DNA from: an uncultured Chloroflexia bacterium
Lineage (GTDB): Bacteria > Chloroflexota > Limnocylindria > Limnocylindrales > CSP1-4
NCBI GenBank assembly: GCA_963790915.1
Contig: CAWBQS010000003.1
Location: 856,304 to 920,303, forward strand
Reading direction: 5' to 3'
Length of the DNA stretch: 64,000 nt
Shown here: piece after piece, positions 16,689-22,020 of the stretch
How positions within the stretch are numbered: the stretch's first letter is position 1
How the letters are laid out: each line of letters begins with the position of its first letter
Made by a program: the position numbers and the translations under genes
Notes under the pieces: generated by a model
Told to the model about the DNA's origin: nothing
Database searches by the model: none
What the model saw: only the letters and a program-made list of their open reading frames with translations

Positions 16689-18229
16689 GTGGTTCTCCTC
16701 CGGAGGGGCTGCCGTGGACGGTCTGATCGTGCAGGCGGCCGGCAGGTGGCTCGCCGTTCGGCCCCCCTCGGACCGGATGTGGGCGGGAGTCTGAGGCAAG
16801 GAGCTGGCTGATGCAACCGTCGTTCTCCTCGGAAGACGTCGGCCGGACCGGTTCCTGCCTCGCTCGCAACACCTGACAGCCACGTTGACAGCCACGGCAG
16901 TCGCACTCGGTCCCACAGCGGGGGAGAGGGTGGACGAGGGCCGGAACTGGGGCCAACGTGGGGCGCCTCTGAACGCCGCCATGGACGGCACCTGGACGGC
17001 CATTTGATCCTCGTGTCTTGGGTTCGCGCGGTCACGTCCCTAGAGTTGGTGTAACAGCGGAGTGGCCGACACAGGGAACGGCCACCGCGTCATCCTCGCG
17101 TCGTTGGAAGTAAGGGACCGACGACGAAGGAGAGACCACGATGGCCGAGGACAGGATGAGCCTGCTCGAGACGATCCGCAAGGCCGGGGCCGATGGCGAT
17201 GCCGACTTCCTGCGTGAGGGCGTGAAGGCGCTCGCCGAAGCGGTCATGGAGGCCGAGGTGTCCGCGCTCACCGGGGTGGCCCGGGGGGTGCGCGATCCCG
17301 AGCACCGCAGCACCCACCGCAACGGCTACCGCGAACGCCGCTGGGATACCAGGGTGGGCAGCCTCCCGCTGTCCATCCCCCGGGTCCGTGACGGCAGCTA
17401 CTTCCCCTCGCTGCTCGAGCCCCGCCGGCGCGCTGAGCGGGCGCTGCTCGCGGTCGTGCAGGAGGCCTATGTCCTGGGTGTCTCGACGCGCCGGGTCGAG
17501 GATCTCGTCGAGACCCTCGGCATCAGCGGCATCAGCAAGAGCGAGGTCAGCCGCATCTGTGCCGCGCTCGATGCCGAGGTCGAGGCCTTCAGGGGCCGGT
17601 CGCTCGCCGGCGAGGCCTATCCCTACCTCTGGCTGGATGCGACGTATGTCAAGGTCCGCGAGGGTGGCCGGGTCGTGAACATGGCCGCCCTCGTGGCCAC
17701 CGGTGTCGACCAGGACGGCCAGCGTCGCATCCTCGGCCTGGAGCTGGCGGCGGGCAACGACGAGGGTTCGGCCTGGCCGGCCTTCATCGGTGATCTCGTG
17801 GCTCGCGGCCTGTCGGGGGTCAGACTCGTCATCAGTGATGCCCACCCGGGGCTCGTGGCCGCCGTCCACGCCCAGTTCCTCGGCGCCTCGTGGCAGCGCT
17901 GTCGCGTCCACTTCACCCGCAACGCCCAGGATCTCGTCCCCCGCTCGGCCCGGGGCATGGTGGCCACGGTCATCCGCACCATCTTCGAGCAGCCCGACGA
18001 GGCCGCGGCCCGGGAGCAGCTGCGTCGGGCCGTCGATGGCCTGCGGGCTCGGTTCCCGAAGGTCGCCGAGCTGCTCGTCGAGGCGGAGGCTGACATCCTC
18101 GTCCACTTCACCTTCCCCGAGACCCATCGTCCCCGCATCCGCAGCACGAACCCGCTCGAGCGGCTGAACAAGGAGATCCCGGTGTTTGACTGTGCCAGCC
18201 CAAGGGCCGCGGCGGCGGCTCCTAGGATC

Positions 18230-18410
18230 GGGGACTGCGCCGGGGCCTGACTCGAAGGAGATCTCGACGCCACCTTCGAACTGGTGGTCGTCTTCCGTTT
18301 GAAGTGTCGACCCTGGTGCGGTCACCGAAAACCGTGCTGACCTGATGAGAGCGTCGTTTCGTCTCGACTGGGATGTTGTCGCGCGGTTCCGCTCCGCCAC
18401 ACCAGGACTT
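18230..18410 (+). ncRNA. Bridge RNA of the IS110 (boundaries approximate)
   Basis: Target guides AAGGAGATC (18255-63) and CGTTTGA (18296-302); donor guides ATGAGAGCGTC (18345-55) and ACTGGGA (18367-73); enclosing stems visible. Confidence 0.8.
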
Positions 18411-18424
18411 CGGAGGCGAACATC

Positions 18425-19510
18425 ATGGCGACAGCCAACATCGTCGGTATCGACCCACACCGCGAGACGTTCACCGCGACCGCCCTCGACCCACGTGGCG
18501 GCGAGATCGGACAGGCCCACTTCCCCAACACCCGAGAAGGCCACGGCGCCGCAGTGGCGTGGGCTGCGGGGTTCGGGTCGGTCGAGCGGTGGGGCATCGA
18601 GGGCACGGGTGGGCTCGGCCGACCACTCGCCGAGTATCTCGTGGGGGCCGGGTGCGACGTGCGCGATGTCCCCCCGCACAAGACGTCGCTCCGACAGCGC
18701 GGCCGGCACGAGGGCAAGTCCGACCGGCTCGATTCCCACCGGGTCGCGGCAGAGACCCAGACGAACACTCGCTTGGCGCGGGCGTTCAAGTGCGCCGAAC
18801 CAGCACTGCCGAACTCGATCCGTGAGCGCATGGCCCTGTGGCACGGTGCCCGAACGTCCCTGACCAAGATCCGGGTCCAGCTCCTCGGAGAGCTCGATGC
18901 GCTCGTGCACGACCTGCCCGAAGACCTCCGCCGCCAGCTTCCGGCGATGAAGACCGTCAGCGCCCGGGTGAACTCGCTGGGCCGGCTCGACACCGCCGAC
19001 GTCACCGATCCCACGGTGGTACTGCGGCTCCGGCTCATCGAGCACCGCGTGGCGATGCTCCGCGATGTGCTCGAGCAGGACAAGGCCGCGACCGCCGAAC
19101 TCGGCAAGTTGGTCGACGCGACAGGATCGACGCTCACCGAGCTGGTCGGCATCGCGCCACGTGCAGCGGCGGCGATCATCGTCGAGGTCGGCGATATCCG
19201 ACGCTTCAGCGAGGCCGGCTTCGCCCGGTTCAACGGCACCGCACCCATCCCGGCGAGCTCGGGCGAGGGAGGAGGTGGGCCCGTTCGGCATCGCCTCTCG
19301 CGCGGCGGCAATCGACGGCTCAACGCCGCCATCCACCGCATCGCCATGATCCAACTCCGCTTCGAGCCTCGCGCCCGCCGGATCCACGACCAGGCCCGCA
19401 CCAACGGCCACACGGGCCGTGAAGCGATGCGCGTCCTGAAGCGCAACCTCTCGAACGCGATCTACCGGACGATGCTCCGTGACGCTCGACGGGCCGCGGG
19501 CTTGACATGA
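18425..19510 (+). CDS. IS110 recombinase/transposase (DEDD)
   Basis: VGIDPH, WGIEGTG, GKSDRLDS; C-terminal FARFNGTAPIPASSG, RLSRGGNRRLN. Confidence 0.95.
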   Translation: MATANIVGIDPHRETFTATALDPRGGEIGQAHFPNTREGHGAAVAWAAGFGSVERWGIEGTGGLGRPLAEYLVGAGCDVRDVPPHKTSLRQRGRHEGKSDRLDSHRVAAETQTNTRLARAFKCAEPALPNSIRERMALWHGARTSLTKIRVQLLGELDALVHDLPEDLRRQLPAMKTVSARVNSLGRLDTADVTDPTVVLRLRLIEHRVAMLRDVLEQDKAATAELGKLVDATGSTLTELVGIAPRAAAAIIVEVGDIRRFSEAGFARFNGTAPIPASSGEGGGGPVRHRLSRGGNRRLNAAIHRIAMIQLRFEPRARRIHDQARTNGHTGREAMRVLKRNLSNAIYRTMLRDARRAAGLT

Positions 19511-19881
19511 GAGCTTCAAGCGCCGCACCGCGGTGGTGGGCATCTTCCCCACCCGGGCCAGCCTCATCCGCCTGGTGGGCATGGTCCTCACCGAGCAGGA
19601 CGACGAGTGGCAGGACGGGCGCTGCTACTTCCCATCTGAGGCGACGTTTCGACCGCTGGTATTGGTGGTGAGCCGGCTGGGTCGAACCCAATGAGCTGGG
19701 CCTGGGCTCCCAACGGACCCTGGCGTCGCGAGCACTCGACCCGTACCGAGACCCAGAGCTCTGACCCTCTCAGGGGCAGAGTGTCCTCGCCCACCATGTT
19801 AGACATCCGCGTCCGGGATCACTCCAGTTCCCTGATGTCGCATATCGCGTCACTGAAACGCCCGGGTGATTGGCGGTTCCG

Positions 19882-20262
19882 TCACGTGCCTCGCTCGCCC
19901 CGCCGCTCGATGAGGTATCCCGCGAAGTCCAGGACCTCCTTCAGCTCGGCGTCGGTCAGCTTGCTCAGTCGGTCGTCTTCGGAGAACGTGATCGAGAGTT
20001 GCGCCAAGTCCTGAGCGAGCCGCTGCGGCGGGGTGCCCCAGAAGCGCTCGAGCAGGTGGACGAGCGGGATATCCGTGTGGTCGGAGAGGCGGCGTAGGTC
20101 CTCCGGGGTCGGCACGGCGCGTGATGGGCGCGACTCGTCGAGGAACGCGGCGACGTAGCCGGCATCCCGACCCATCGCCAGGCTCAGCTGGCGCATCGAT
20201 AGGCCGGTTCGGTCGAGGACCTCCCTCATCTCGGCGCGGACCTGCTCGACGGTGGGCTGCAC
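19882..20262 (-). CDS. XRE-like HTH regulator (putative island repressor)
   Basis: GLSMRQLSLAMGRDAGYVAAFLDE...PTPEDLRRLS; divergent from the recombinase. Confidence 0.7.
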   Translation of the reverse strand: MQPTVEQVRAEMREVLDRTGLSMRQLSLAMGRDAGYVAAFLDESRPSRAVPTPEDLRRLSDHTDIPLVHLLERFWGTPPQRLAQDLAQLSITFSEDDRLSKLTDAELKEVLDFAGYLIERRGERGT

Positions 20263-20298
20263 GGGCCCATGGTAGCCCCGCGATTCCGCACCGGTCTG

Positions 20299-20326
20299 TA
20301 GTCAAATGCGACATCTGCTGTATAAT
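20299..20326 (+). promoter_or_regulatory. Sigma70-type promoter for the recombinase
   Basis: TAGTCA-16bp-TATAAT; perfect -10 in a very GC-rich context. Confidence 0.55.
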
Positions 20327-20502
20327 AGCCACAGGATGGTAGGCGGTTCGATGTGCGGTTCGACCCGGACGAGCCCCGATGCCACGGGGCGGCGGAGCTG
20401 TCCGACGCGCTGCTCGTCGCCCTCCTCGACCTCGCCCTCTCGGCCGAGCGTCCGACCGAAGACCGAGCTCCGCCGAGTCGGCCGACGAGGAGACCACGCC
20501 GG

Positions 20503-22020
20503 ATGGCTAGTGCCCCGCTCCCCGCCAAGCTCGAGGCGATCAGCGGGCGCACGGTCCGTCGCTACGTGCGCGTCTCCTCTCTCGAGCAGGGCTGGAAGTA
20601 CGGGCCGGACGGCCAGAACCTGACCATCGACGAGGTCATCGCGCGCACCGGCCTCCGCGAGGTCGGCCCACCCTTCGTCGACGAGCAGTCGGCCTGGCGC
20701 CGCTCGGAGGAGCGCCCCGCACTGCAGGCCCTGCTGGCAGCCGCGCGGGAGGGTCGCTACGAGGTCCTCGCCGTCGCCTACTTCAGTCGCTGGAGCCGGG
20801 ACGCCGAGGTCGCGCTGCGCATCCGGCGCGAGTTGCACGCCGCCGGCGTGACGCTCCTCTTCGCCGACGAGGGCTTCCTGTCCTCTGACGAGGACGCCCA
20901 TGAGCGGTACCTCGACGAGGCGGTCGCCGCCGAGAAGTTCAGCCATCGGCTGAGTCGCACGATCAAGCGCACCTATTCGGCCAAGTTCGAGCGCTACGGC
21001 GACCAGGCTGGCTCACCGGGCCTGGGCTTCATGCGTACGCCCCAGCCGGAGGCCAGGCTGGCCATCGACCCGGCGACGATGCCGCGCGTGGTCGCGCTCT
21101 TCGAGCGCTACGCGCAGGGCGACGTCAGCTACCGTGCCCTGGCCCGTGAGACCGGCGTCCGCGAGGGCGCCCTGCGGGCCATCCTCACGAACCCGCTCTA
21201 CAACGGGTGGGCGGTCCGCGACCGCCGGTCGCGCAACGAGCGCCGTGCCGCCGCGCCATGGCGTGCGGACCCACCGGTCACTGACCACCTCTGGGCGCGG
21301 GTCGCCGAGGTCCGGGCACAGCGCGTCAAGACGGCAGGGCGCCAACACCCAAAGCGAGTCCACATGCTTGCCAAGCGCATGTTCTGCACGTGCGGCCGGG
21401 CCGTGAGCGCAGACACGCTCACCAAGCGCGCAGGCCCGTACCGGCGCTATCGGCACGAGGACTGCCAGCGCTGGCCGCAGATGAGCTACAAAGCCGCTGT
21501 CTTCGAGGCGCCCATCGCCGCACAGGTCAGCGGTATCCGACTGACCGCGGACGTGCTTCGCCGCATCCGGAAGCTGGCTGCCGCGCCGGCGATCCCGGAC
21601 CTCTCATCCCGGCGCGATGTCCTCGAGCGCGAGCTGGCGCGGAAGGCGGCCGCGCACGCGTCACGGACGATCACGACCGAGGCCTACCTCGCGGAGCATG
21701 AGCGCATCAGCCGCCTCATCGACGGGTTGGCGGACGCGCCGCCGACCGCCAGCGGGATCGACCCGGACCGAGCCATCGCGCGCTTGGCCGACCTCAAGGA
21801 CGCTTGGGCCAGGGCCGACGAGGGCGCGCGGGCGAAGCTCGTGGGTGCGATCTACCGCCGCATCATCGTCGAGGGCAGCGACTTCGTCGGCGTGGAGCTG
21901 ACGGAGGAGGCCAAGGCCATGGGGCTGGCAGTCGCACTGCCCCAGAGTGTGGCTTTGGCGCGCCCGGCGGGACTCGAACCCACGACCTTCTGCTCCGGAG
22001 GCAGACGCTCTATCCGCTGA
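20503..22020 (+). CDS. Large serine recombinase (integrase)
   Basis: RYVRVSS catalytic motif, YFSRWSRD, ILTNPLYNG recombinase domain, CTCG zinc ribbon, coiled coil; RBS AGGAG (ORF extends upstream to 20353). Confidence 0.92.
   Translation: MASAPLPAKLEAISGRTVRRYVRVSSLEQGWKYGPDGQNLTIDEVIARTGLREVGPPFVDEQSAWRRSEERPALQALLAAAREGRYEVLAVAYFSRWSRDAEVALRIRRELHAAGVTLLFADEGFLSSDEDAHERYLDEAVAAEKFSHRLSRTIKRTYSAKFERYGDQAGSPGLGFMRTPQPEARLAIDPATMPRVVALFERYAQGDVSYRALARETGVREGALRAILTNPLYNGWAVRDRRSRNERRAAAPWRADPPVTDHLWARVAEVRAQRVKTAGRQHPKRVHMLAKRMFCTCGRAVSADTLTKRAGPYRRYRHEDCQRWPQMSYKAAVFEAPIAAQVSGIRLTADVLRRIRKLAAAPAIPDLSSRRDVLERELARKAAAHASRTITTEAYLAEHERISRLIDGLADAPPTASGIDPDRAIARLADLKDAWARADEGARAKLVGAIYRRIIVEGSDFVGVELTEEAKAMGLAVALPQSVALARPAGLEPTTFCSGGRRSIR

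Follow-up and report, generated by a model that had tools for sequence, protein, structure and literature searches.

The window analysed here is a 64,000-nucleotide stretch of contig CAWBQS010000003.1 (assembly GCA_963790915.1) from an uncultured Chloroflexia bacterium, and our subject is an insertion sequence (IS) of the IS110 group lying inside an IS256-type transposase gene. The Pfam profile PF00872 (Transposase_mut) is matched over positions 15-345 to the left of the element and over positions 346-378 to its right, and both flanks are, as the profile match indicates, parts of one interrupted IS256/Mutator transposase gene. The insertion falls between Ile346 and Lys347, six codons past the predicted catalytic glutamate E340. 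It cuts off the last 58 residues of the transposase and is co-oriented with the host gene. The 14-base target site AAGGAGATCAAGCG reads AAGGAGA-TC-AAGCG and encodes K-E-I-K-R, and its TC core is found at both junctions (18177-18178 and 19516-19517). The features of the locus are collected in Table 1.

Table 1. Features of the nested IS110/IS256 locus (window coordinates; A2 is the alignment of left-end segments described in the text)
Feature	Position	Strand	Basis
IS256 (Mutator-type) transposase, 5' part, residues 1-346; predicted D166, D233, E340	17141..18178	+	PF00872, E-value 7.9e-111
Left target AAGGAGA + core TC, codons K-E-I	18170..18178	+	left junction, read directly
IS110-group element, 1339 bp including the right-hand core copy	18179..19517	+	junctions
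Non-coding left end, 246 nt, encoding the predicted bridge RNA	18179..18424	+	ends at ATG 18425
Target-binding loop, outer stem, 5' arm	18237..18251	+	helix 1, A2 columns 40-54 with 130-143
Left target guide AAGGAGAUC, 9/9 to left target + core	18255..18263	+	motif match
Hairpin within target-binding loop	18266..18292	+	folding
Right target guide CGUUUGA, complement of TC-AAGCG	18296..18302	+	6/7 + one G-U
AG, candidate handshake guide with complementarity to CT at donor positions 6-7 (...AGCTTC)	18303..18304	+	read from sequence
Target-binding loop, outer stem, 3' arm	18306..18319	+	helix 1 partner
Donor-binding loop, outer stem, 5' arm	18329..18341	+	helix 2, A2 columns 156-168 with 231-242
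Left donor guide AUGAGAGCGUC, 10/11 to right end; mismatch at donor position 7	18345..18355	+	motif match
Right donor guide ACUGGGA, complement of TC-CCGGT	18367..18373	+	6/7 + one G-U
Donor-binding loop, outer stem, 3' arm	18378..18389	+	helix 2 partner
Recombinase gene, 361 aa; GGAGG at 18412-18416	18425..19510	+	PF01548, PF02371
TTGACA, -35-like hexamer 10 nt from right end; candidate half-promoter	19502..19507	+	read from sequence
Right end (left donor) ATGAGAGCT + core TC	19507..19517	+	motif match
Right target AAGCG (19518-19522) + 3' part of IS256 gene (KRRTAVVGIFP...)	19518..19694	+	PF00872 positions 346-378

Prokaryotic Mutator-like transposases are described in PMC3942029 as having a DDE triad, 99-138 residues between the second Asp (D2) and the Glu, and a C(2)H motif 11-19 residues after D2. 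The host gene agrees with the IS256 family in domain, triad and D2-to-E spacing (107 residues), and its C254-x-x-H lies 21 residues after D2, against the stated 11-19. That E340 is the catalytic Glu is a prediction from its position. No convincing pair of terminal repeats of the host IS256 was found around 17000-19900. The truncated IS256 frame (17141-18250, forward strand) continues for 23 codons into the left end of the IS110 element, to a stop codon at 18248-18250 shortly before the bridge-RNA stems, so that translation of the host IS, or read-through transcription, would enter the element. The sole other IS256-like sequence in the bacterium's own genome is a fragment (G000, C5:204073-204568) that covers residues 96-261, is about 61% identical and does not contain the target region.

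The 361-residue recombinase matches the Pfam domains PF01548 (E-value 3.5e-15) and PF02371 (E-value 8.9e-15) and is homologous to the IS621 structure 8wt6 (E-value 2.3e-12, in two stretches of 23.6 and 25.6 bits). Its residues D10, E59, D100, D103 and S279 align to D11, E60, D102, D105 and S241 of IS621, with an offset of 2 in the IS621 chain numbering deduced from a chain length of 328 versus 326. According to the structure paper (PMC11208158), these five residues make up the composite active site of IS621. By its sequence, the element belongs to the IS621 type of IS110-group insertion sequences and is intact. We found a DEDD RuvC-like domain with Tnp/Ser domains, a long upstream non-coding region and no subterminal inverted repeats, the last two being the distinguishing characters of the group given in PMC11187229. 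We also found a two-loop RNA with the core in all four guides, covariation of guides and sites, the same core at both junctions and a scarless empty site. The element ends (CCGGTGTT... and ...GAGCTTC), as read from the sequence, are not inverted repeats. The recombinase stop codon falls within the right-end donor sequence and is followed by only 7 nt; with its non-coding region thus located upstream of the gene, assignment to the IS1111 group was ruled out. The elements of the relatives are 1333-1343 bp long, with the exception of L022 (1239 bp). No Rfam 15 family matches the left end, the lone match in 17000-20500 being a sub-threshold Mu-gpT-DE located outside the element.

In the bridge RNA of IS621, as defined by Durrant 2024 (PMC11208160), the left target guide (LTG) reads as the top strand of left target plus core and the right target guide (RTG) as the reverse complement of core plus right target; the left and right donor guides (LDG and RDG) are built likewise, and the core is present in all four. 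The first-pass annotation had claimed this layout for the left end of the element, and the layout fits the published definition, with all four guides matching and the stems covarying. The ten strings on which the claim was built were all located by script at the positions given for them. AAGGAGATC is present both at the junction (18170-18178, left target plus core) and in the left end of the element (18255-18263), ATGAGAGCGTC is at 18345-18355 and ATGAGAGCTTC at 19507-19517, which is the right end. CGTTTGA, ACTGGGA and TCCCGGT are at 18296-18302, 18367-18373 and 18177, respectively, and the stem halves are at 18330 and 18381 (AACCGTGC and GCGCGGTT) and at 18266 and 18283 (GACGCCACC and GGTGGTCGTC). 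Over the window, AAGGAGATC has exactly two copies, both at the predicted places (0.23 expected; at least two in 2 of 100 shuffles), and the same holds for ATGAGAGCNTC (0.16 expected; at least two in 4 of 100 shuffles). The pairing of CGTTTGA with its target contains a single G-U, as had been proposed. Donor position 7, the mismatched one, is a position at which IS621 tolerates a left-donor mismatch (PMC11208160).

The secondary structure of the left end was derived with RNAalifold from alignment A2, in which the left ends of the window element and its relatives are represented by 54 distinct segments. It consists of two outer stems and leaves all four guide segments in internal loops. Over the whole structure 97.7% of the cells are standard pairs and 11 of the 23 pairs are changed on both sides, values reached by none of 500 shuffles, the structure having been derived from the alignment on which it was tested and the sequences being mutually related. 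Sliding the partners by 1-3 columns lowered the paired fraction to 31-47%. Helix 1 is paired in 98.3% of the cells, with compensatory change in 4 pairs, and helix 2 in 97.1%, with compensatory change in 7 pairs, which backs the stem earlier proposed to close the second loop. A folding energy of -15.5 kcal/mol (z score -4.27; no better or equal fold in 200 shuffles) was obtained for the hairpin that had been seen to separate the two target guides, and the segment between LTG and RTG forms one hairpin in 17 of the 17 sequences folded, which differ in sequence and length. Both outer stems were recovered from an alignment of a 22-sequence subset, which added a 4-bp hairpin within the donor loop. 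When the whole 246-nt left end was folded on its own, as the annotation had suggested, the target guides paired with each other (z score -2.47); the comparative structure is more informative than this fold. The U that follows the RDG is complementary to target A7, and the AG that follows the RTG to donor C6-T7, consistent with the handshake-guide concept of Hiraizumi 2024 (PMC11208158); these bases are invariant among the relatives, so that they offer consistency and no covariation to score.

Relatives of the element were collected from species-representative genomes (18 loci) and, by a protein-alignment scan, from metagenome contigs (80 more), giving 98 loci in total. Identity refers to the best tblastn segment, anchors served to find the junctions, and the peptides of the flanks were written out for each locus. 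Both junctions lie in IS256 at N-K-E-(I/V)^K-R (the caret marks the junction) in 25 loci, and one such junction was found in 14 others, the second being lost to the contig end or, in L020, to a deletion of the left junction. L051 has a right IS256 junction, its left one not being placed; 2 loci have no junction and 56 have other flanks. When the set is restricted to the 45 loci of at least 61% identity, 44 have a junction and 40 of these are at the N-K-E-I^K-R-R site of IS256 genes, an assignment supported by few residues in L043, L050 and L056 (right side) and in L014 and L029 (left side). The question raised by the first-pass annotation, whether homologues sit at the IS256 K-E-I-K-R codons, can thus be answered positively for 40 of the 44 close relatives with a junction. 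The remaining five of the 45 comprise L019 and L048, located in ISL3 transposase genes, L045 and L055, with a non-IS256 right flank, and L065, without junction. In the genome records the hosts are Chloroflexota metagenome-assembled genomes, Acidimicrobiales, a Streptomyces and a Microbacterium, the last two being cultured isolates with intact copies (L021 and L023). No close relative was found among PLSDB plasmids, where the best match, on a Pseudonocardia plasmid, is 36% identical, and the IS110 genes of the 60 nearest genomes of the window's lineage are just 35-39% identical.

To follow guides and targets together, the 56 loci with guides and both junctions were collapsed into 22 guide classes. 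A class matched its own target at a mean of 10.0 of the 12 non-core positions versus 5.74 for the targets of other classes, and none of 10,000 permutations reached the observed value. The expected covariation of guides with targets therefore holds across the 22 classes. Covariation extends to synonymous codon differences: in L049 (guide AAAGAAATC, target AAGGAAATC) the Glu codon is GAA in guide and target alike. The RTG form CGCTTGA, present in 20 loci, is at AAGCG in all 20 and at none of the AAA targets. The form CGTTTGA, present in 10 loci, is at AAGCG in 6 (the window included) and at AAACG in 4, these four falling in one subclade and hence not being independent. This distribution fits the idea, put forward from the window alone, that a wobble on the third position of the Lys codon lets one guide accept both AAG and AAA.

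Five loci are in ISL3 transposase genes. In L019 (flanks ...GLNNLI^KRIKRIGFGFRNF) the LTG is AATTTTATC and the left half of the target AACTTGATC, with the RTG unchanged (CGTTTGA, at AAACG); its donor guide ATAAGAGCTTC equals its own right end, an instance of guide-donor covariation. In L058/L059 (flanks ...ESVNTKI^RLLTRVAFGF) the LTG, the left half of the target and the RTG are all changed, and the changed guides follow the new site in part (7/9 on the left and 4/7 on the right, core included). The flanks are ...IKKI^KRVGRGFRNF in L084 and ...EV^KRCGHGFRSF in L048. The left guide alone differs in L019, L048 and L084, all three of which retain TC-AARCG as right target half together with the guide for it. 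On the Pfam profile DDE_Tnp_ISL3 the left flanks of L019 and L059 end at position 220/240 and that of L084 at position 223. The cut in IS256 lies within an E-x-x-N-x-x-I-K/R pattern and separates residues six and seven after its Glu, and the same is true of L019, L058 and L059 among the five ISL3 loci; in ISL3 we take this Glu, from DDE signatures, to be the catalytic one. L084 is cut three residues further, and the left flank of L048 ends with its contig. The description of the element as an RNA-guided parasite of another IS family hence stands as to the IS256 site and was too narrow in its single host family, close relatives being found in ISL3 genes also. In a quick tree of 63 distinct proteins (out of 67 passing the frame rule, from 99 loci; arbitrary root, no direction of switching claimed), 31 IS256-targeting rows are grouped with L019, L048 and L045 in one well-supported clade, with a value of 98 in the SH-like approximate likelihood-ratio test (SH-aLRT), and L058 and L084 are placed just outside. 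Shifted frames had been picked for L077, L017 and L040/L043, which form long branches in this tree.

Uninterrupted target sites were found in genomes and in sequencing runs. The Streptomyces genome G063 (locus L021) has five IS256 copies with an uninterrupted AAGGAGATCAAACG and one occupied copy. Three IS256 copies in G062 and G064 have diverged sites (N-R-E-L-A-R-R, N-R-E-I-K-R-R) and are unoccupied. DNA run X2 has contigs in which 18175 or 18176 is joined to 19516; in runs X1 and X2 contigs continue from 18178 into AAGCGCC..., and in the RNA-library run X20 they continue into AAACGCC.... The contigs of these three runs are uninterrupted IS256 relatives present in those samples, not necessarily in the same organism.

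On this evidence we read the element as an IS621-type insertion sequence with a two-loop bridge RNA, whose recombinase inserts at the IS256 K-E-I-K-R site, and give this joint claim a probability of about 0.9. It is carried by the anatomy, the guide matches, the structural and guide-target covariation and the recurrent presence of elements at one and the same site across diverged IS256 hosts, all of which are observations. By analogy with IS621, the left end would encode a bridge RNA with two internal loops, in which AUGAGAGCGUC and ACUGGGA of the donor loop would pair with the element's own joined ends. A DEDD/Ser recombinase bound to this RNA would bring the circle junction and AAGGAGA-TC-AAGCG together, and strands would be exchanged at the TC core. 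The circular intermediate, the circle-junction promoter, the RNA binding and the chemistry are all inferred from IS621. Since the site encodes K-E-I-K-R after the predicted catalytic Glu of IS256, the element lands inside other insertion sequences.

Several observations weigh against this reading, besides the dependence between the covariation structure and its alignment. An A-C mismatch is found at LTG position 3 in an actinobacterial subclade (L021, L023, L052, L054), and the right flank is not IS256 in L045 and L055, two loci with the same guide type or right end as the window element. Broken recombinase frames were found at 7 of the 18 loci from genomes. The bacterium's own genome, 85% complete, has one copy of the element and no other perfect 14-mer target. 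Among the five genomes checked for copy number (G061-G065), the element is single-copy in G062-G064, despite the five empty targets of G063, and G065 has one frameshift-split copy. G061 has one intact and one broken IS110 copy. Single copies despite empty targets suggest that activity may be low. As for transcription, no sigma-70 consensus promoter (in the integrated state) and no terminator were found in 17000-19800, and TTGACA has no clear -10 partner. A junction promoter is described for IS621 (PMC11208160). The conservation of the hexamer provides no independent count, 93 right ends having been located via TTGACA itself. Among public sequencing runs, none has more than 27% of the sampled words. 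One of two metatranscriptome runs contains a 153-nt contig identical to part of the recombinase gene, and the second contains diverged pieces including 18290-18341; these contigs are small parts, possibly from DNA in the libraries, and prove neither transcription nor its absence. No circle junction was present among the contigs of the four runs examined.

These same facts of copy number, promoter and transcripts, together with the many frameshifted relatives, are what one would expect if the window copy were a stranded, inactive relic that has kept its bridge-RNA anatomy. We consider this unlikely, though worth serious attention. The 361-residue frame is open with all five catalytic residues present, and the four guides, like the two ends, are intact and matching. 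Moreover, IS621 itself is described in PMC13626964 as weakly expressed and as excising poorly from the chromosome, so that a low copy number is expected even of an active element.

A second alternative would make the shared site uninformative on targeting: a single ancestral insertion, after which the IS256::IS110 composite spread and diverged as a unit, in trans or vertically. In principle, intact copies could mobilise an interrupted IS256 in trans, and most genomes checked have one copy. We compared the flanks (about 110 nt on each side, the 14-nt target left out) of the 26 loci with both junctions, including the window. Over 276 pairs, element and flank identities are positively correlated (r 0.57), as joint descent predicts, whereas the flanks are more diverged than the elements (mean identity 0.701 versus 0.797). 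In 32 of the 55 pairs with elements at least 0.90 alike, the flank identity is below 0.80. As the host IS256 copies are more diverged than the elements, repeated insertions look likely; the element possibly moves among diverged IS256 copies, and with an r of 0.57 there may be some co-descent. A single insertion is also at odds with guides that track synonymous target differences (GAA in L049, the U form of the RTG at all four AAA targets), with close relatives in a different IS family at an analogous motif with changed guides, and with hosts that span Chloroflexota and Actinomycetota. We therefore regard it as very improbable.

That the protein and not the RNA reads the site, the guide-like matches being incidental, is hardly credible: another IS110 element is reported to gain specificity from a target-encoded structure (bioRxiv 10.64898/2026.03.19.712850) and the role of the guides is deduced here from sequence, whereas guides covary with targets in 22 classes and with the donor in L019, the guide segments are in loops framed by covarying stems, and the protein is homologous to that of IS621, in which reprogramming demonstrated RNA guidance (PMC11208160).

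The element thus read as a bridge-RNA recombinase system can be compared with known ones. It shares with IS621 (PMC11208160, PMC11208158) the RuvC-like DEDD domain and a Tnp domain with a catalytic Ser, an RNA in the left end upstream of the gene, the two loops, the order and strand sense of the guides, the core in four pairings, a target of 7+2+5 bases, a -35-like hexamer in the right end and a mismatch at the tolerant donor position 7. It differs in its core (TC, versus CT in IS621), in its distant protein (E-value 2.3e-12), in being known from sequence alone and in its natural target, a coding motif inside other insertion sequences. IS110 elements are often found to target repetitive elements (PMC11208160). 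The IS1111-group seekRNA elements (PMC11187229, PMC11208160) are likewise of DEDD type and choose sites in other mobile elements by a short RNA, whereas they have subterminal inverted repeats and a non-coding region downstream of the gene, and aim at non-coding ends and recombination sites (Tn21 ends, integron attC) instead of transposase codons. In the pairs ISEc11/ISXne4 and ISEc21/ISMch6 (Siddiquee 2024, PMC11187229), relatives about 72% identical have differing guides that match differing targets. The contrast of L019, L084 and L058/L059 with the window element is a natural redirection of the same kind, different in that it takes place between the same functional motif of IS256 and ISL3 transposases. 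The mechanism is that of IS621, and its natural target was not found in print: our literature search found no report of an IS110 element aimed at the catalytic-motif codons of IS256 or ISL3, and the supplementary tables of Durrant 2024 and Siddiquee 2024 may list such sites.

Some further loci deserve mention. L045 (from 1339 onward) and L055 (from 1025 onward) have an IS256-type right end followed by AGTCG or AGTTG and non-IS256 flanks. L045 also has IS256-type guides, and the guide region of L055 and both left flanks are cut by contig ends; these two are possible off-target insertions. L020 (1063-1342) has a deletion across the left junction that would lock the element in place: it lacks the final codons of the left IS256 half along with some 20 nt at the start of the IS110 left end, and ...STNP is followed by GTATCCGTTAACCGG.... 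Ten metagenome contigs (L072-L081) carry an IS110 relative of 53% identity with an identical left flank ...GCTGAAATC^ and right flanks that have CCGA(T/A) in common and then diverge, pointing either to a short target that recurs or to an element that sits at the end of a larger repeat. In Mycolicibacterium hassiacum, Table 1 of PMC10832570 gives IS110/IS256 starts 842 bp apart at 2,896,931/2,897,773 and at 2,920,403/2,921,245; other IS110/IS256 start pairs in that source are about 1.4 kb apart. Such pairs may be nested IS110-in-IS256 insertions in a cultured mycobacterium. In the window itself, about 0.6 kb separates the interrupted IS256 from a downstream 555-residue frame with a serine-recombinase (Resolvase) N-terminal domain (20353-22020, forward strand; PF00239, E-value 5.9e-16). 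The nested IS may be at the edge of a larger integrated element.

A broader reading, which we hold tentatively and think quite possible, is that this bridge-RNA IS110 lineage is made of specialised hyperparasites of DDE transposons, which switch families via the LTG and act as a reversible off-switch or hitch-hiker. The target of the lineage may be the codons that come shortly after the catalytic Glu, in an E-x-x-N-x-x-I^K/R signature, a stretch that the host IS may not be able to alter easily without disabling its own transposase. Moves between IS256 (Pfam position 345) and ISL3 (220, 223) may take place by rewriting of the left target guide, and the half-site TC-AARCG (Ile-Lys-Arg) kept in L019, L048 and L084 would be the stepping stone. 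Because the insertion is co-oriented and the excision of IS110 elements is scarless, the element could use the promoter of the host IS, act as a reversible off-switch and hitch-hike on IS256 or ISL3.

The locus makes the natural programming of a bridge RNA readable from sequence, with four guides, both ends and the target in one window, and one cultured Streptomyces genome with a relative has empty and occupied sites together. It also illustrates how a target may be chosen in nature: a sequence that is multi-copy, travels horizontally, is costless to the cell and is pinned by selection on the catalytic motif of the host transposon. The relatives form a natural retargeting series, with tracking of synonymous codons, G-U tolerance at the third position of a Lys codon and an IS256-to-ISL3 jump with one guide changed, which could inform mismatch-tolerance rules and guide design. 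Finally, among the IS256 and ISL3 'pseudogenes' met by annotation pipelines there will be many nested insertions.

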